A DNA stretch of 64,000 bases from IMG/VR virus record IMGVR_UViG_3300044991_001466, one strand, 5' to 3'. The DNA is from a virus. Its lineage: Duplodnaviria; Caudoviricetes. This document shows positions 1 to 26,694 of the stretch, in pieces; the stretch's first letter is position 1, and every line of letters starts with the position of its first letter. The notes under the pieces were generated by a model that searched no databases, was not told the DNA's origin, and worked only from the letters and a program-made list of their open reading frames with translations. Position numbers and translations under genes: made by a program.

Positions 1-1234
1 ATATGTAATCAAAGATTTAGTTGATTACACAAATATTCATAAATTAGATTTATCATATTCAATCGATGCAACAAGTGCAAGTATTACACCAATTACCACA
101 AATCCCGGTACAATATCATTAGGTTCAGTAAAAGGTGGTACTTCTTCATTTAAGGTGAGAGTGTTGTTTCCACAAGGATATACGATTGCTGACCACGGGA
201 TTTCGTTATTACAATTAAACGCGACTAAAACTGATGTTGATTGGACTAAAGCCCCATTAGCATTTAAACAATTAGATGCAAGTGGTGAAGCGACATTTAC
301 AACCGAAGTTAAAGTAGGAGATACGATTGGATTAATGGTGAGTCCGCCAAATGGTAAAACATGGATGAACAATGTTATAACAGTGTCTGACGCATATAAA
401 GCATTTTTAGGTATTGCTCAAACTGACATTAATGGCACAAAAAACTTTTTCCAATATAATCGAGAAAGAATAATGGCTAATGTATCTAAAGATGATGGTA
501 CGGGTACAGAGATTTATAATGAGACAGATGCATATTATTTATTTTCACATGTAATGGGTATAGATGTGAGTACAAAGGCATTTATTCCGTCATCTACCGC
601 CACAACACTTCGTTATGGTAGTTCATTATTAAATCAAGGATGGTTAGATGGTACAAATAAGTATATAACAACCGTAACATCAGCAACACAAGCGGTGGAT
701 ATGGTTTTTGCTTGGAATGGTGATTTAGATTTTTCTCACTCATCTTCATTAACTGAAATTGCAAGTAGAATATCAACTGGTAATTACGCAAATTCAATTA
801 AAGGTAATGATGAAGTTGGAGTTAATAAATCAATGTCAGTTCAATCAATGTCATATAATCAAGTATTTGAAACTGCTAAATTAAGTTTAACCTCTACAAT
901 AGTTAACGGTAAGGTAGTATTGACTGGTAATTTAACAAAAGAAGGTTTAGCTGGTTTAGAGGTTATATTACAATATGATAATTCTAAATTAACTTTTGAT
1001 AACATTTCATTTGATGCGGGTCCAAGTGTAACTAACTTTTCAACAAATGCAGATGGTAGATTAACATTTGGTTCTATGGATCAAACAAAAACCGCAAGAA
1101 TTAAGACAGGTACACCATATAAATTAACATTTACACCAAAAGAAACCATAACAAACACCTCAGGTTTATTCTATACAGTTTTAGCTGATGCTGTTGATGG
1201 AAACGGAAACAAAATTAATTTGACAGTGGAGTAA
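1..1234 (+). CDS. Dockerin- and cohesin-like domain protein, 5' truncated by window edge
   Basis: The frame of ORF 155..1234 stays open back to position 2 (YVIKDLVDYT...), so the GTG at 155 is internal. It has dockerin-like segments NVITVSDAYKAF and ANVSKDDG..IYNETDAYYLFSHVMG, a WNGDLDFSHS motif and a C-terminal cohesin-like LAGLEVILQYDNSKLTF. It is paralogous to the next gene. Confidence 0.65.
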   Translation, partial: YVIKDLVDYTNIHKLDLSYSIDATSASITPITTNPGTISLGSVKGGTSSFKVRVLFPQGYTIADHGISLLQLNATKTDVDWTKAPLAFKQLDASGEATFTTEVKVGDTIGLMVSPPNGKTWMNNVITVSDAYKAFLGIAQTDINGTKNFFQYNRERIMANVSKDDGTGTEIYNETDAYYLFSHVMGIDVSTKAFIPSSTATTLRYGSSLLNQGWLDGTNKYITTVTSATQAVDMVFAWNGDLDFSHSSSLTEIASRISTGNYANSIKGNDEVGVNKSMSVQSMSYNQVFETAKLSLTSTIVNGKVVLTGNLTKEGLAGLEVILQYDNSKLTFDNISFDAGPSVTNFSTNADGRLTFGSMDQTKTARIKTGTPYKLTFTPKETITNTSGLFYTVLADAVDGNGNKINLTVE

Positions 1235-1237
1235 TCT

Positions 1238-3532
1238 ATGAATAAATTATTTTTAATATTATTTTTATTTACATCATTCTTAGGGTTCGGACAGAGTGTA
1301 TCTGCTCCGGACTCTAAATCTTTTTTACCATCCACAAATGGACAAGATGCAAGTGGGTTTATATTAAGTGGATTCAGTTCTACGGCAACTCTATTAGCAT
1401 CAATCAGTTTAGTAGAATTCCCAACAGGTACAACATTTGTATTAAATACAACAACGGGCCTAACTGCTGCAAGTGGATTTACTTTAAGTGGTAATAAAAC
1501 TCGTTTAGTAATAACGGGTACAATGACAAGTATCAATACGGCATTGACATCCCTAAAAATAAACACAGGTTCGGTAGTTGGTAATGTAAAATTATCGGTT
1601 GCTGCAACAATTAATCCAACAGGATTTTATTACAATGGTGTAAATGGTCATTTTTATAAACCCGTAACGGCAGGTACAACTTATACTGGTGCTAGAGCAG
1701 CATCGTTATTAACAACATTCAAAGGGCAGACGGGGTATTTGGTAACAATAACATCGGCATCTGAAAATGCTTTTATATTTGCTAATGTACCACAAGCTAA
1801 CATATGGTTTGCAGCAACGGATGAAGTTACCGATGGTAGATGGGTAATTGATGCGGGACCTGAAAAGGGGACGGTAATGAAAACCCAAAACGGACAACTT
1901 AATGGAAACATTGCCGGCGTATATAACAACTGGGCACAAGGTGAACCAAATGGTGGTAATCATACTGAGGATTATGCAGTAACAAATTGGAACGGACAAT
2001 CAACATGGAATGACTTATCAAACAATTGGACTAATCCATACATAATTGAATATGGAACTTGGACTAATCCTGATGATGCAACATTTACGGAGTTTTACAC
2101 CAATAGTGTATCTCATTCAAATGGTGAAGTCCTAACTGCTAAATTTAATTTTGACTTTGGTGGTAATGTGGATGAAACTAAATTTTCAACAAAGGCAAAT
2201 AGATATGTAAATAATCTATGGAGTACCACTACCAACACATCAAGAGCAATAAGTGGATTGGGTAAGGTTGATATTACAAATGATTTGGATACCGCAAAGG
2301 TAAGTGGGGTTGGTACTAAAGCAACAACATCCGCCGGACAAGTTGAATGGGCAATAATAAATCCATATGATGCAAATTTAGGTGGACATCAATTGTTAAT
2401 AGATGAAAGAGAATTTGATGGAACTGGAGTATCTCCAAGTAATGTAACATCAATTAAATTATTTGATATATACGATGGACCGGTTAGTGTTCATAGTGTA
2501 AGTGGTTTTTGGAAAACTTATATAATGCCGGGTAATTTGACAACCAAAATAACTTCATCTACATTTCAAGCTCAATTAAGATTACAAGATGGTTGGTATG
2601 GAACGAGAGCTGAATTTACTTTCTCACCAATTCAAAGTTATAAACAACACGGGATTGAATTAACATATACCAATCAAACGGATTTAAACACTTTATACAA
2701 TAGTGTTGTGACCGTATCGGATGTGTTTATTGCATTCAAAGAATTATCAAATGGTGGGATATTTGGAAATGAAAGTGGAAATGAATTCACATCAGGTATT
2801 CAATTTTTGAACGCGGATGTAGATGGTAATGGTATATTCAACGAAGCGGATACATACAAACTATTACAACATTTGACAGGAGTTCAACCACTTACACAAA
2901 ATCCACTATTAACTTTTCTGATGAAACTTTATAGTAAATCAGATTATGATTCAATTACTAAATCTAATTGGAATACAAAATTCAATTCAACAAGAAGTTT
3001 ATATCCGTTTAGTTTAAATACGGGTACACTTAATAACACATACAATGTTAATGTTACTTGGAAAGGTGATGTAAACCTATCTCATTCTGCACAACAAAGT
3101 GCAACTGGTGTCTCCGGTAATTCTATTAGAACTATGAGTTTGAGTACTAATTCAGTTTCAAATGAAGTAAACGCTTTAATTATGGGCGAAACCGTAGGTA
3201 ATAAAGTTATAGTTACAATATCAATAGACCCATTACAACAAGAAGTGGTGGGAACACAATTTCAATTAAACTATGATAATACCTCATTAAGTTTTGAGAA
3301 GGTGGAGTTTACAACTAAGGGAAACCCAACCAATTTTGGAAGTGATAGAGGTAATTATATTACATTGGGTTCATTAATAACTGATGGGTCAACTCTATTA
3401 GATAAAACAACAGAATATAAAATAACATTTGTACCAAAAATTGAATTGGGTGGAATATTGGGATTGACTTCAATATCAACAACCGATGCCGTTAATAAAG
3501 ATGGTAAACAATTAAAAATTAAATTGAACTAA
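1238..3532 (+). CDS. Secreted C-type lectin / dockerin / cohesin-like protein
   Basis: Sec-type signal peptide (MNKLFLILFLFTSFLGFG-Q). C-type lectin-like region with GYLVTITS, WAQGEPN and WND. Dockerin-like repeat NADVDGNGIFNEADTYKLLQHL. C-terminal cohesin-like VVGTQFQLNYDNTSLSF. Confidence 0.72.
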   Translation: MNKLFLILFLFTSFLGFGQSVSAPDSKSFLPSTNGQDASGFILSGFSSTATLLASISLVEFPTGTTFVLNTTTGLTAASGFTLSGNKTRLVITGTMTSINTALTSLKINTGSVVGNVKLSVAATINPTGFYYNGVNGHFYKPVTAGTTYTGARAASLLTTFKGQTGYLVTITSASENAFIFANVPQANIWFAATDEVTDGRWVIDAGPEKGTVMKTQNGQLNGNIAGVYNNWAQGEPNGGNHTEDYAVTNWNGQSTWNDLSNNWTNPYIIEYGTWTNPDDATFTEFYTNSVSHSNGEVLTAKFNFDFGGNVDETKFSTKANRYVNNLWSTTTNTSRAISGLGKVDITNDLDTAKVSGVGTKATTSAGQVEWAIINPYDANLGGHQLLIDEREFDGTGVSPSNVTSIKLFDIYDGPVSVHSVSGFWKTYIMPGNLTTKITSSTFQAQLRLQDGWYGTRAEFTFSPIQSYKQHGIELTYTNQTDLNTLYNSVVTVSDVFIAFKELSNGGIFGNESGNEFTSGIQFLNADVDGNGIFNEADTYKLLQHLTGVQPLTQNPLLTFLMKLYSKSDYDSITKSNWNTKFNSTRSLYPFSLNTGTLNNTYNVNVTWKGDVNLSHSAQQSATGVSGNSIRTMSLSTNSVSNEVNALIMGETVGNKVIVTISIDPLQQEVVGTQFQLNYDNTSLSFEKVEFTTKGNPTNFGSDRGNYITLGSLITDGSTLLDKTTEYKITFVPKIELGGILGLTSISTTDAVNKDGKQLKIKLN

Positions 3533-4425
3533 TGAAAAAACTAATAATAATTCTGTTACTAATTTCGATTACATTTGTTACAAAAGCCCAAATTGTAAAA
3601 CCCGATACATTACAATTATCACCAAAGGAATTATTTGGTGAAAGTGATGATTGGAACGATGTGGGTGTATTACAATCCTATGTTAATTTTTCAAAAGATG
3701 TGCTTTCATCCTCAAACTTATCAGTTGGTATAATCGGAAAGCAAGTATCCACTACTCTTAATTTGGGTTACAATAAATCATCTATGAATGGGCAATGGGG
3801 TCACACATTCGCAGCATCAATAAATCCTATATGGAACTATTATGGTGTGGGATATGGTCTTAGTAAAAATACCGAAAAGAGAACAACCACATTACAATCA
3901 TTTTATTCAACCGATTTTGATTTTCAAAAAGATATTACACTATCATTCATCGATGTATTCAGAACTAAAAAGTTTGGAACATTTGGATATAGTTTAATTG
4001 CATCAAAATCTTTTTGGGGAACATATGAAGGTCAATGGGAAGGAAAATATACGGTAGATGAAAATGGTGATTTTAAAGATTTAATATACCCAATGATACC
4101 GGCATCAAGTGAAATAAGTTATAGAGGTATGGTGATGTACACATATACATTGAAAACAAAGAGAGTAAACATATCACCACAAATATTTGCAATGAGTGAT
4201 GTATATAAAGTATTTAAAGATGGTACTACATCGGATTTATCGTATTTTGATGATTTCAATTTGGACTTATATTATGGTACATCTATCGATTGGAAGGTAA
4301 CTAAAAGATTTGTATTAAATACTAATATTAGATATAACACAACTTTTGATAAATTAAGTGAATCAGTTGGTTATAAAAAGAGTAACCCAATAATGTTTAT
4401 GATAGGAACAAACTTTCAATTTTAA
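3532..4425 (+). CDS. Probable outer-membrane beta-barrel protein
   Basis: Signal peptide ending TKA-Q, alternating hydrophobic/aromatic strands, C-terminal Phe (GTNFQF). Paralogous to the C-terminal half of 8581..10161. Confidence 0.6.
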   Translation: MKKLIIILLLISITFVTKAQIVKPDTLQLSPKELFGESDDWNDVGVLQSYVNFSKDVLSSSNLSVGIIGKQVSTTLNLGYNKSSMNGQWGHTFAASINPIWNYYGVGYGLSKNTEKRTTTLQSFYSTDFDFQKDITLSFIDVFRTKKFGTFGYSLIASKSFWGTYEGQWEGKYTVDENGDFKDLIYPMIPASSEISYRGMVMYTYTLKTKRVNISPQIFAMSDVYKVFKDGTTSDLSYFDDFNLDLYYGTSIDWKVTKRFVLNTNIRYNTTFDKLSESVGYKKSNPIMFMIGTNFQF

Positions 4426-4766
4426 TGAAAAAGACATTACTCATATTTGTAATTTTATTGGTGGGATGTGTTAAACCAGACCTGCCTGTTCCAATACCAC
4501 AAATTACCTATGTATTTGATGTAAAGGAAAGTGAAGTAACAAATGGACAGGATATATATTTTAAACTGCCATCCGATGGTATACATACTTTAACTTTAAT
4601 TGATAAAGAAAGTGGGCAAGTGGTTAGTAGAGAAAAATTTAATGGTAAATCGGGTGAAAATGTGAAAAAAATTTACACCAATTCCCTACTTAAGGGATAT
4701 TTACTATTAGTGTTGGAAGACAATAATAAGAATCAATTAGGTAAAACAATAATAATAAATAAATAA
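4425..4766 (+). CDS. Lipoprotein with T9SS C-terminal-domain-like Ig fold
   Basis: Lipobox LVG-C15; pattern TLTLID..GQVVSRE..NGKSGEN....TNSLLKGYLLLVLED...KTIIINK; paralogue of 4783..5157. Confidence 0.5.
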   Translation: MKKTLLIFVILLVGCVKPDLPVPIPQITYVFDVKESEVTNGQDIYFKLPSDGIHTLTLIDKESGQVVSREKFNGKSGENVKKIYTNSLLKGYLLLVLEDNNKNQLGKTIIINK

Positions 4767-4782: not shown

Positions 4783-5157
4783 ATGAAAAAGCTATTTATA
4801 GTGGTATTAAGTTTAATGATTCTTACAGGTTGTAGAAAAGAACAGGATTTTCTTCCAACTATTCAACAAGCACCCGAAGATTTGAAAATATCTAGTTCTT
4901 TAGGTATTAAATTACAATCACCATTTGTCACTTCAGAGGTTGCAATGAATGTTAAAAGTGAAATTGTGGGATCTGTAACAATTAAGATATTTGACATCTC
5001 AAATAGAGTTGTTTCAAAAGAGACCGTTAACGTAATTGTTGGAGATAATATACTTAAAGTATATACGTCATCATTACCAAATTCAGCATATAGAATTGGT
5101 TTTTTTGATTCAAAAAATAATATGTTAGGAATAACAGATTTTAATAAAATAAACTAA
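4783..5157 (+). CDS. Lipoprotein with T9SS C-terminal-domain-like Ig fold
   Basis: Lipobox LTG-C17; GSVTIKIFDISNRVV...GDNILKV..SSLPNSAYRI resembles the type A CTD pattern (V.I.IYD..G..V....G.N....S.L..G.Y). Confidence 0.55.
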   Translation: MKKLFIVVLSLMILTGCRKEQDFLPTIQQAPEDLKISSSLGIKLQSPFVTSEVAMNVKSEIVGSVTIKIFDISNRVVSKETVNVIVGDNILKVYTSSLPNSAYRIGFFDSKNNMLGITDFNKIN

Positions 5158-5615: not shown

Positions 5616-6209
5616 ATGAGTAAACAACAATCACCAAGTGGTTTTAAAGATTTATTAAGTAACATGATGGCCAGAAGATGGTATATCACAGCATTGGTGT
5701 TAGGTGGGTTTATGTTAATAATTGGTGGTATGTTTGTTGCCATTATTAATAAAAATGAAATTGCCGGAGAATGGAAAGAACTTCTTTTATTATTATTGGG
5801 AGCTTTCATCGGTTCTTATGGTAAAATCATTGACTATTGGTTTAGTGATACCGATAAGGATAAGATGTTAGTCCAAAAAATGGATGAAGAAGATGGTACC
5901 TCATTAAGTAACACTGCCGATTTACCAAACAACCCAATTGTACCTATGTCGACCGCACCATTGGTTTTACCAACAAGTGAAGAAGTTGAAGTACCCAAAC
6001 CACAACCCCGTACAGGTGTTGAAGTAGATGAAGATGGGGATGGCATAATGGACGGTATTGATTTTGATGGTGATGGTAAAATTGATATGTACTTTGCACA
6101 TAGACAATGTGAGCACGTATGGGGAGATTTAGATGGTGACGGTATCGAGGAGTGTTTGAAATGTGGTAAAATAAAAGATGAAAATGCAGAAATGCACACG
6201 GAAGGATAA
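5616..6209 (+). CDS. Two-TM membrane protein with DxDxDG calcium-binding loops and Cys/His tail
   Basis: Two hydrophobic helices, then DEDGDGIMD, DFDGDGKID and DLDGDGIEE, with CEH...CLKC at the end. Confidence 0.55.
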   Translation: MSKQQSPSGFKDLLSNMMARRWYITALVLGGFMLIIGGMFVAIINKNEIAGEWKELLLLLLGAFIGSYGKIIDYWFSDTDKDKMLVQKMDEEDGTSLSNTADLPNNPIVPMSTAPLVLPTSEEVEVPKPQPRTGVEVDEDGDGIMDGIDFDGDGKIDMYFAHRQCEHVWGDLDGDGIEECLKCGKIKDENAEMHTEG

Positions 6210-6520: not shown

Positions 6521-6528
6521 TATTTATA
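6521..6528 (+). promoter_or_regulatory. TATTTATA late-type motif upstream of CsgG-like gene
   Basis: Exact TATTTATA directly after a terminator; the same motif precedes the terminase, portal, protease, scaffold and tube genes. Confidence 0.6.
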
Positions 6529-6542
6529 TTAAAATAAGATGT

Positions 6543-7265
6543 ATGAAAAAATTATTAATATTATTAAGCGTTTTTTTACTAAGCGCTGTTGTCGTTGACG
6601 GACAAACAATAGGTAAAACTAAGACAGAGGACTACAAGGCGGACTTTGAAAAAAAAAGAGATATAAGTGCGTACATGGATTACGATGGTCCTCAAATTCC
6701 AATTCAAATATTAAAGGCAGGAATTTCTGACGAGATGTATGAAATGTATCCTGAACTAAAAGAAAAACGTGTTGGTTTAGGTGTTGCAAATATATCTATG
6801 GAATACCTTGAAAACTTAAACAGATTTAAATTTACTGAAGACAAGACAGAAATTAAGAATAGGATGGTAAAACAATTTCAAGCATCTGCGGCAGGTATTT
6901 CTGAGAATAAATTAGATGGTCGTGGTAAAATCAATTTGGCAAAGTATTTTGTGACGATTGAGTGTTATGACTACTCAGTGTCAGAAGATGAAACCATCAA
7001 CCTTAAAAATGGTATACAAGACAATATGGTAACTCGTATAGGTCTTCAGGTTAGGTTTACAGATGCGGAGACAGGTGTCTTATTTGGTGGGTCAGGTTTA
7101 GGTGAAGCAACAACAAAAAGAGAATTAACTCTTTTATCTGATGCATCTATTGACCCAATTAAATTCAACCAATCAACAATTAGTATTGCAACTAAAAAGG
7201 CGTTAGATATTGCCTGTGCTAACATTCTTGATAGAATGATTAAAAAGGGAATATTTGCAAAATAA
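6543..7265 (+). CDS. CsgG/HfaB-family protein
   Basis: Signal peptide; GLGVANISMEYLENLNRFKFTED, AKYFVTIECYDY and RIGLQVRFTDAETG follow the CsgG-family pattern. Confidence 0.65.
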   Translation: MKKLLILLSVFLLSAVVVDGQTIGKTKTEDYKADFEKKRDISAYMDYDGPQIPIQILKAGISDEMYEMYPELKEKRVGLGVANISMEYLENLNRFKFTEDKTEIKNRMVKQFQASAAGISENKLDGRGKINLAKYFVTIECYDYSVSEDETINLKNGIQDNMVTRIGLQVRFTDAETGVLFGGSGLGEATTKRELTLLSDASIDPIKFNQSTISIATKKALDIACANILDRMIKKGIFAK

Positions 7266-7317: not shown

Positions 7318-7329
7318 ATATTTATAAGT

Positions 7330-8581: not shown

Positions 8582-10161
8582 TGAAAAAAATAATAATATC
8601 TCTCCTAATATTATTTTTTTGTAGTAAGTCTTTTGGACAAAGTACAATAACACAAACGTACATAGACCCGTGTGATAATAAAGTCTATGTTGTTGTAATT
8701 CCATTCGGACAAAATCAAACTGTTGCTGTTATTAGGGGTAAATCTAAAATTGTAACATTAGCCGACATTAGTAGTGGTACTTTTCAAACATGGGTGAATA
8801 GTATATTTGCAACACCTTGTCCACAAAACGATAATATCAGATTAGCACAAGAAGCCGCAGCAAGGGCGGCAGCAGATGCCGCAGCTAGAGCCGCCGCGGA
8901 TGCTGCGGCAAAAGCGGCTGCGGATGCTGCGGCAAAGGCCGCATCAGATGCTGCAGCAAAGGCGGCGGCAGATGCTGCAGCTGCAAGTGCATCGTCAGCC
9001 GCAAGTAATTCAGCATCATCGGCAGCAAGTTCATCGGCAAGTGCCGCCGCAAGTTCTGCAGCTGCAAATGCTGCAACACCTCCACCAATAAACATTGCAC
9101 CTCCACCACCCGCTCCGGTAGTTACTGCACCTCCACCAACGGCAGCACCTCCACCGGCATCAAGTAGTTCATCACCACCTCCCGCAAGTGGTGGTTCATC
9201 TTCTTCTTCATCAAGTAGTTCATCATCAACTGAAGCAAAACCAGCAGAAAGTAAACCAGCGGAAACTAAATCAGATAAACCAGCTGAACAAAAAACCGAA
9301 GAAAAGAAAACTGAAGCTAAGACAGAAGAAAAGAAAGAGGAAACAAAAACAGAAGAAAAGAAATCAGAAGAAAAAAAGACTGAGGAGAAAAAGGAAGAAG
9401 CTAAAAAAGAAGAAGAAAAGAAAGAGGAAACTAAAAAGGAGGAAGAAAAAAAGAAAGAGGAAGAAAAGAAAAAAGAAGAAGAAAAAAAGAAAAAACAAGA
9501 AGTAACAAATCCAACGTTACTTGCGTCAGATATAACCGGTGCAGAACAACCAGACGGAACTTATTTAGCCTCAATTTCAATGGGACTTAGTAAATCATCT
9601 TTGGCGGGTGATGTAAGTTATAGTACAGGATTGGTTGTGAATAGTAATTTAAGTTCTATTGTAATGACGGGTGGAATTACTAAAATGGGATTAACAAAAG
9701 ATGGACAGTTAGATGCAATACATTCATACGGAACCGCATTTGCATATTTAGGTGGGAATTACATGAATTTGTTAGGTTACACTTGGATTAAACCTACACC
9801 AAAAAAAGGTACATATGGTTATAACGTAGGTATTATTAATTTATTTCTTAAAAATGATAGTGGTGGATTTGATTATAATATGGCCAGTTCGGCAATTGTA
9901 TTTTGGACTAAACCTTATCAATATTCAAAAAAATTAACGGTTTCTCCACAAGTGTTTACAATGTTCTCACCCATATCATGGAATAGTTCAAATGGTGAAA
10001 CAAACGTGAATAGACATATGGGATTTTTATTGGGGGCGGCTTTTGATTATAAAATAACAAAAAGATTTGGGTTTAGTTTTAATTACAAAATGAGTGGGAA
10101 TACTAATCCAGGTTCTCCATTTTTAAGTAATTTCTTAATTGGCTCAAGAATGATGCTTTAA
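8581..10161 (+). CDS. Exported protein with TolA/TonB-like long linker and C-terminal beta-barrel
   Basis: Signal peptide ending SFG-Q, then Ala-, Pro-, Ser- and Glu/Lys-rich blocks. The C-terminal domain aligns with 3532..4425 (KKGTYGYNV/KKFGTFGYSL; VSPQVF/ISPQIF; DYKITKRF/DWKVTKRF). Confidence 0.6.
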   Translation: MKKIIISLLILFFCSKSFGQSTITQTYIDPCDNKVYVVVIPFGQNQTVAVIRGKSKIVTLADISSGTFQTWVNSIFATPCPQNDNIRLAQEAAARAAADAAARAAADAAAKAAADAAAKAASDAAAKAAADAAAASASSAASNSASSAASSSASAAASSAAANAATPPPINIAPPPPAPVVTAPPPTAAPPPASSSSSPPPASGGSSSSSSSSSSSTEAKPAESKPAETKSDKPAEQKTEEKKTEAKTEEKKEETKTEEKKSEEKKTEEKKEEAKKEEEKKEETKKEEEKKKEEEKKKEEEKKKKQEVTNPTLLASDITGAEQPDGTYLASISMGLSKSSLAGDVSYSTGLVVNSNLSSIVMTGGITKMGLTKDGQLDAIHSYGTAFAYLGGNYMNLLGYTWIKPTPKKGTYGYNVGIINLFLKNDSGGFDYNMASSAIVFWTKPYQYSKKLTVSPQVFTMFSPISWNSSNGETNVNRHMGFLLGAAFDYKITKRFGFSFNYKMSGNTNPGSPFLSNFLIGSRMML

Positions 10162-16705: not shown

Positions 16706-16775
16706 AGAACCTTATTTTTTCCCTATATGTATGTATTTATAGGATAAGAATAAGTATATCTAACAATCAAAAAAA

Positions 16776-20762: not shown

Positions 20763-20764
20763 TG

Positions 20765-20772
20765 TATTTATA
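20765..20772 (+). promoter_or_regulatory. TATTTATA late-type motif, 3 nt before terminase ATG
   Basis: gTATTTATAtatATG. Confidence 0.65.
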
Positions 20773-22551: not shown

Positions 22552-22605
22552 TCTTCCTATTATCAAAATTATAGTTTATATTATAAAGAAAAGTATTTAT
22601 ATAGA

Positions 22606-25886: not shown

Positions 25887-25924
25887 GTAAGATATTGATG
25901 TATTTATAGTTATAAAAACTATAA

Positions 25925-26608: not shown

Positions 26609-26694
26609 TCAATTTTATAGGTGCAGTTATATTAAAAAATAGAATTTTTCATAAAACTACACTATTTATAAGATAATAAAAACAAAATTTCAAA

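Follow-up and report, generated by a model that had tools for sequence, protein, structure and literature searches.

What do two adjacent phage genes do when their products end in modules of the kind that hold cellulosomes together? The question is raised by genes A and B, which open a 64,000-nucleotide (nt) stretch of viral DNA, here called the window, from the 129.7-kb IMG/VR virus record IMGVR_UViG_3300044991_001466 (CheckV completeness 39%). Cohesin-dockerin pairs, valued as tools of synthetic biology, are best known as the connectors in bacterial cellulosomes. A first-pass annotation of the window had noted cohesin and dockerin modules in both genes and had suggested that such proteins could polymerise head to tail. 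In the present analysis, the cohesin-dockerin-like cassette was found to define a large conserved gene family of uncultured jumbo phages. We give an even chance to the reading that A and B are exported sugar-binding proteins with a cohesin-dockerin-type assembly cassette, which would join into a complex within the infected cell's envelope.

Two tandem paralogues share a conserved C-terminal cassette

The 3′ part of gene A occupies nt 1–1234 of the window on the plus strand (open reading frame 2–1234, cut by the window edge). As had been advised in the first-pass annotation, the missing part was recovered from upstream DNA, and the complete gene, starting 427 nt upstream of the window, encodes a protein of 553 amino acids (aa; P0123) that begins with a signal peptide (MKKLISIIGLFLITYTSFGQ). 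Gene B (nt 1238–3532, plus strand) encodes 764 aa (P0002), with a signal peptide at aa 1–19 (nt 1238–1294) and Gln at +1. Both genes have the same orientation, and their products are 27% identical over the C-terminal ~300 aa (E = 1e-18), which bears out the claim of two tandem paralogues with a shared order of modules.

Each motif named in the first-pass annotation was checked by translating the window, and all were located. VITVSD was found in A (nt 374–391) and VVTVSD in B (aa 490–495). The EF-hand-like repeat that had been placed at about nt 2810–2880 is NADVDGNGIFNEADTYKLLQHL in B, with a 12-residue loop at nt 2816–2851. GDLDFSHS is present in A (nt 719–742) and GDVNLSHS in B (nt 3065–3088), and the GxQFxLxYD-type start of the terminal domain reads GLEVILQYD in A and GTQFQLNYD in B.

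The shared C-terminal cassette is about 290 aa long and consists of a 154-aa dockerin-like domain, the GDxxxSHS motif, a Ser/Thr-rich linker and a terminal cohesin. In A, the dockerin-like domain spans nt 335–760 (P0123 aa 255–396) and the cohesin nt 875–1231. In B, the 154-aa domain lies at nt 2645–3106, the flexible linker at nt 3089–3154 and the cohesin at nt 3155–3529 (aa 640–764). All of these features are on the plus strand.

On sequence profiles and a structural model, the terminal domain of A and B can be firmly assigned as a true cohesin, type-I-like and with a predicted nine-stranded β-sandwich. In a six-frame search of the genome, Pfam Cohesin (PF00963) scored 29.1 bits on A and 25.2 bits on B, both above the cut-off of 24.1, while hmmscan on the whole proteins listed it on A at 26.6 bits and did not list it on B. 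Cohesin matches were also obtained for 37 of 72 relatives (E ≤ 0.01), and a profile of 67 diverse cassettes reached solved cohesins at E values from 8.8e-7 to 2.7e-4.

The AlphaFold2 model of the cassette, built on the 67-cassette alignment, reached a predicted local distance difference test score (pLDDT) of 90 and a predicted template modelling score (pTM) of 0.86. When it was compared with the PDB by Foldseek, the best matches were all cohesins (E 8e-8), including non-cellulosomal ones from C. perfringens and A. fulgidus. In a scan of 48,161 representative chains, performed independently of Foldseek, cohesins filled the top 18 rows and unrelated folds started at Z 10.6; cohesin 4ums was matched at Z 14.5, with a root-mean-square deviation of 2.1 Å over 123 residues. 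With Pfam scores above the cut-off on both C-termini and a model that matches solved cohesins at this Z score, the terminal cohesin of the first-pass annotation was confirmed.

A further stretch of A was also compared with cohesins. At the N-terminus (P0123 aa 20–150, the larger part of which lies before the window), VGDTLSIKY...FWLRYQFNNKALSYV is similar to the first cohesin strands. The alignment of this VGD...QYNNKxL stretch with those strands by hhalign gave an E value of 0.003 but a probability of 10%; a profile of the stretch found no cohesin in the PDB, and its Atlas feature matches stayed below 0.9. Gene A may hold two cohesin-like domains, of which the N-terminal one is only hinted at. 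The N-terminal domains of A are β-rich.

The cassette is abundant in sequence databases. A word-index search yielded 2432 database proteins at E ≤ 0.001, and an exhaustive search of 1.84 billion cluster representatives (clusters at 50% identity) yielded 154, with the cassette at the C-terminus in every full-length match. The relatives found in the Atlas and BFVD were all viral. In IMG/VR, 80 related loci were collected, of which 72 had enough upstream DNA to be judged, and both paralogues stood in tandem in all 72.

The cassette was not found when A, B and two distant relatives were compared by tblastn with 50,697 GenBank phage records, the only match being a PA14 match in a Salinibacter virus; no cultured phage with the cassette was thus seen among these records. 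Megablast of the first 8 kb of the window also gave no match. No paper describing such a phage cohesin-dockerin family was found, and a comparative review of jumbo phages makes no mention of cohesin or dockerin.

The window encodes a T4-type large terminase, a gp20 portal and a gp23 capsid protein, in agreement with the earlier designation as phage DNA, and in addition a T4 RNA ligase and a ClpB-like ATPase. Close relatives with T4-like structural genes are found on contigs of 320 kb (up to 334 kb), and the 320-kb relative has the same gene order. The nearest cultured relatives by capsid include Rhodothermus and Flavobacterium phages. The source is a very large (jumbo) T4-like uncultured lake phage of Bacteroidota-type bacteria. 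The 129.7-kb record is labelled 'provirus' in IMG/VR, yet it is a 39% fragment with T4-like relatives of 320–334 kb, and no sign of integration was noticed in the window.

Dockerin-like domain, export signals and proposed assembly

The region before the linker was modelled alone as a domain of 154 aa, with a pLDDT of 92. When this model was scanned against the 48,161 chains, only 25 reached Z 2, and the eleven best were all dockerins, with Z scores of 5.2–3.3 over 49–63 of their ~60–70 residues, at model residues ~18–86. These scores are low because the core is small. The profile of the 67 cassettes reached solved dockerins at about 2e-3, and Dockerin_1 (PF00404) was the one recurrent sequence match in the family (25 of 67 members at E ≤ 1, best E 6.8e-5). 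In B, the dockerin-like core comprises aa 487–555 (nt 2696–2902) and contains the canonical Ca loop DVDGNGIFNEAD (nt 2816–2851), as expected from the position given earlier for the EF-hand-like repeat. This second loop has all five ligand positions in B and in 24 of the 67 members.

Outside the core, the 154-aa domain is made up of short strands together with GD-x-[ND]-x-SHS, which is nearly invariant, and structure searches returned no solved counterpart of this part. The domain as a whole recurs in bacterial AlphaFold DB entries named dockerin-domain or type IX secretion system (T9SS) sorting-domain proteins (TM 0.55–0.60). Two tandem Ca-loop-plus-helix segments of ~22 residues, which characterise type I dockerins, were not found by loop scoring in the 67 members. 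Sequence and model evidence supports a dockerin-like domain of an extended, atypical type that is not a member of PF00404. The dockerin repeats described in the first-pass annotation are therefore represented by a dockerin-like core, but this core is embedded in a larger domain. The fold search that the same annotation had proposed as a check returned a cohesin fold for the terminal domain and dockerins, at low Z, as best matches for the domain before it.

Only the Asp of loop 2 is more conserved in the family than the GD-x-[ND]-x-SHS motif. The first residues of the motif (GDVN) recall a dockerin Ca loop, and its last ones, SHS, directly precede the flexible linker. Its role may be that of a third metal site or of a processing site.

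The linker corresponds to cassette residues 156–170, which are disordered in the AlphaFold2 model (15 residues, pLDDT < 50). In the family its length ranges from 15 to 41 residues, with ~30% Ser/Thr. Among 113 B orthologs the linker was the least conserved part and the dockerin-like domain the most conserved, a comparison biased by the selection of the set for C-terminal similarity.

The pTM of 0.86 was reached despite the disordered linker, and ESM Atlas models of relatives, obtained independently, could be superposed over the full 295 cassette residues with TM 0.75–0.91, so that both predictors fix the dockerin-like domain relative to the cohesin of one chain. Such a fixed two-domain unit fits intrachain pairing. 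Pairing between chains may also occur, because co-variation cannot separate contacts within a chain from those between identical chains. A complex prediction for the A cassette with the B cassette gave a score of 0.13 (mark 0.32), which counts neither as support nor as counter-evidence.

Both A and B carry signal peptides of the Bacteroidota type with Gln at +1. Met1 and Gln19 are nearly invariant across the 72 relatives, and Gln at +1 is shared by essentially all full-length members. A signal peptide followed by Gln corresponds to the Q-rule of Bacteroidetes (PMC5837995), and signal peptides of this kind point to a Bacteroidota host and to export.

The N-terminal part of B clearly carries a C-type lectin domain (nt 1613–2122, plus strand; aa 126–295) with a complete predicted EPN/E/WND sugar site. 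The Pfam family (PF00059) was borderline, at 22.0 bits for complete B and 22.8 bits for aa 1–480 (cut-off 22.6), but a profile of the orthologs reached solved C-type lectins at E 6e-12 (CEL-I). At the Ca/sugar site EPN...E...WND (EPN at nt 1943–1951, WND at nt 2006–2014), 16 orthologs keep the residues E, P, N, E, W, N and D without change. The conserved disulfide pairs of C-type lectins are absent, B having no cysteine. In 17–19 of the 72 relatives, PA14/GLEYA precedes the same cassette, and LCCL or fn3 is found in others.

In the reading given an even chance, A and B would leave the cytoplasm of a Bacteroidota host through the Sec pathway. Both proteins would combine a variable ligand-binding N-terminal part (a Ca-type C-type lectin in B; PA14/GLEYA, LCCL or fn3 in relatives) with the conserved C-terminal cassette as the assembly part, in which the dockerin-like domain would pair with a cohesin. 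Intrachain pairing would give a compact conserved 'foot', and interchain pairing would give A-B or homotypic links. The sugar-binding heads would then be held in an envelope complex, presumably beyond the inner membrane, together with a co-transcribed barrel-like protein and lipoproteins. Their purpose would be to bind host-type or phage-made glycans on the infected cell or on debris, for example in receptor masking, exclusion of other phages or cell adhesion.

Several results weigh against this reading. The dockerin module of the first-pass annotation was recovered by profile and fold searches but remained below the Pfam threshold: Dockerin_1 scored 13.4–18.5 bits on B (cut-off 22.9) and gave no match on A, and the Foldseek search of the PDB with the 154-aa domain produced weak rows only (best E 0.74). 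Loop 1, which lies before VTVSD, has lost ligands in all 67 members, with no more than three of five positions kept. The EF-hand-like repeat had been claimed for both proteins; it is canonical in B, but loop 2 of A keeps two of five ligand positions. Both loops of A are degenerate, and Ca-dependent docking may have been lost in this protein. Searches of Pfam, NCBIfam and the genome detected no T9SS sorting domain (PF18962, TIGR04183, TIGR04131) in either protein, and a lipobox was likewise absent, so that a route past the periplasm is not evident. The barrel-like and lipoprotein neighbours (see below) match no family over any cut-off. Finally, mutual binding of the dockerin-like domain and the cohesin is deduced, and the purpose assigned to A and B is pure inference.

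The pairing results also bear on the proposal of the first-pass annotation, namely that the dockerin-like domain of one chain enters the cohesin of the next and that A and B thus build surface chains or lattices with alternating N-terminal domains. Such a head-to-tail polymer would accord with the presence of both modules in one chain, joined by a flexible linker of 15–41 residues, and with the side-by-side position of the paralogues in 72 of 72 loci; the co-variation behind the domain packing could likewise stem from interchain contacts. However, in the models both domains of one chain lie together, and a linker of this length would allow them to pair within the chain. Exclusively intramolecular pairing had been named beforehand as the outcome that would speak against the polymer; the models agree with it to this extent, with cis and trans arrangements not separable. 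Since the Ca loops of A are degenerate and no route to the surface is evident, the polymer appears rather unlikely.

In a bolder form of the same idea, infection by a widespread clade of freshwater jumbo phages would lead the Bacteroidota cell to present swappable lectins on a cohesin-dockerin chain or lattice that assembles itself, a virus-encoded 'mini-cellulosome without enzymes'. We consider this unlikely. If true, the stickiness of the dying cell would be changed toward new hosts, particles or the phage's own glycosylated fibres, which would be a new viral way to manipulate host surface behaviour.

Neighbouring genes and other explanations

Gene A is preceded by a gene for a 216-aa membrane protein (L002 71–721, just upstream of the window) with an N-terminal hydrophobic segment; Lipoprotein_16/YajG (PF03923) matched it weakly, at 22.9 bits with a cut-off of 25. 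Directly downstream of B, a gene for a 297-aa protein (nt 3532–4425, plus strand) begins with an ATG that overlaps the B stop codon. Its product has a Q-rule signal peptide and a C-terminal Phe. The language-model look-alikes of this protein include outer-membrane barrel and autotransporter clusters (0.93), and by these features it is outer-membrane-barrel-like. A PorP/SprF-like identity was considered and rejected, as no family match was obtained.

Two small genes of the lipoprotein type follow on the plus strand (nt 4425–4766 and 4783–5157), encoding proteins of 113 and 124 aa in which the signal peptide is followed by Cys. In its C-terminal half, each has the look of a T9SS sorting domain; in the 113-aa protein the resemblance is weak, with a Por_Secre_tail score of 15.3 bits (E 0.0027), below the 27-bit cut-off. 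The two would be phage lipoproteins made up of a sorting domain only. Further exported or membrane proteins are encoded downstream, up to nt 10161, and the genes for exported proteins after B overlap or are closely spaced.

One of the proteins in this region, of 197 aa (nt 5616–6209), has two hydrophobic segments and, near its C-terminus, three DxDGDG repeats resembling Ca loops (DEDGDG, DFDGDG and DLDGDG). It was not recognised as a dockerin by hidden Markov model search, the only match being a faint one to FG-GAP. It could be another Ca-binding partner in the gene block.

The sorting-domain-like lipoproteins bear on a different explanation of the cassette, in which it would be an export or anchoring device and not a docking pair. 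By analogy with T9SS C-terminal domains, the terminal β-sandwich and GDxxxSHS would be read by envelope machinery of the host or the phage, and the lectin would be secreted, processed or attached. Besides the two downstream lipoproteins and the invariable position of the domain at the extreme C-terminus, the naming and composition of relatives agree with this view. Some clusters of structural relatives from other phages contain Por_Secre_tail in 72–98% of their members, the top match in BFVD is a phage protein that bears the name 'Secretion system C-terminal sorting domain', and the bacterial proteins that share the extended dockerin domain have names of T9SS substrates. The terminal domain itself, however, is a cohesin by sequence and fold (Z 14.5) and not the 7-stranded T9SS domain, and the three sorting-domain models PF18962, TIGR04183 and TIGR04131 matched neither protein. 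An export or anchoring device therefore seems quite unlikely.

The gene block lies ~15 kb from the head genes, and phage fibres and capsids commonly bear lectin-type domains (PMC7824862). Both facts would suit A and B as virion proteins that bind receptors or decorate the particle, with the lectin heads directed at host glycans. Cleavable signal peptides are nevertheless found throughout the family and would take the proteins out of the cytoplasm, where virions are assembled. The genes also stand within a run of genes for exported proteins and lipoproteins, and searches of PHROGs and NCBIfam gave no match for either protein.

A possible regulatory signal points in the same direction. The sequence GTATTTATA or TATTTATA stands 10–30 nt ahead of several gene starts, those of the terminase and portal genes among them, often after a GC hairpin and a T-run, at nt 6521–6529, 7318–7326, 16733–16741, 20764–20772, 22593–22601, 25900–25908 and 26662–26670. 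GTATTTATA precedes the terminase, the portal and other head genes, as well as genes at 6543 and 7330, and the two sequences probably represent a phage late promoter. Directly before A and B, in contrast, GTATTTATA is absent. Taken with the signal peptides, this makes a place in the virion very improbable.

Comparison with known systems

The lectin heads fused to the cassette differ between phage lineages. If the modules dock, phages would assemble a sugar-binding structure in or on the infected cell, with a bearing on superinfection exclusion, loss of progeny to debris and host aggregation in lakes. New cohesin-dockerin pairs that lack cysteine and come from Gram-negative systems would also become available through the cassette, and they might be orthogonal. 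Two puzzling features, the invariant GDxxxSHS and the single-loop dockerin, merit structural study.

The locus does not amount to a cellulosome. Two cohesin matches and one dockerin match were found in the 129.7-kb record (~39% of the genome), and no hydrolase domain was detected in A, B or the 72 relatives. An architectural parallel is found in cellulosomal scaffoldin ends such as CohI9-X-DocII of C. thermocellum CipA (PDB 3kcp, 4fl4), in which cohesin and dockerin are likewise joined by linkers in one polypeptide and whose cohesin fold is matched at Z 13.8–14.5. Unlike in CipA, the order in the phage proteins is reversed, with the dockerin-like domain before the cohesin, and there are no enzyme subunits, carbohydrate-binding module or S-layer homology anchor. 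The host is a Gram-negative member of the Bacteroidota and not a clostridium, and the Pfam dockerin threshold is missed.

Non-cellulosomal proteins, namely the cohesin of Archaeoglobus fulgidus (PDB 2xdh) and the cohesin-dockerin of Clostridium perfringens NagH/NagJ (2jh2, 2ozn, 2o4e), are among the best structural matches. In A. fulgidus, cohesin and dockerin modules encoded by adjacent genes reportedly bind each other. As in these organisms, cohesin and dockerin would act in the phage as general connectors outside cellulose degradation, on carbohydrate-active or carbohydrate-binding proteins. In contrast to both, the genes described here are viral, and the C-terminus of each chain holds both modules, in an order that does not vary. 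The phage dockerin has at most one canonical Ca loop, lies within a 154-aa domain with GDxxxSHS, and has a lectin, not an enzyme, as its cargo.

The lectin of B resembles the Ca-dependent C-type lectins of animals, such as mannose-binding protein, DC-SIGN and CEL-I, which its profile reaches at E 6e-12 and with which it shares all five residues of the sugar/Ca site. It differs from them in being free of cysteine, and hence of disulfides, in being fused to a cohesin-dockerin cassette, and in being encoded by a phage.

Among viruses, dockerin domains have been described on viral contigs from alkane-oxidising enrichments, where they occur beside a signal-peptide protein and a change in cell-surface adhesion was proposed (PMC13452462). 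Those contigs are single ones, probably from archaeal viruses, and cohesin was not reported for them, whereas here a cassette of cohesin and dockerin-like domain defines a large phage family.

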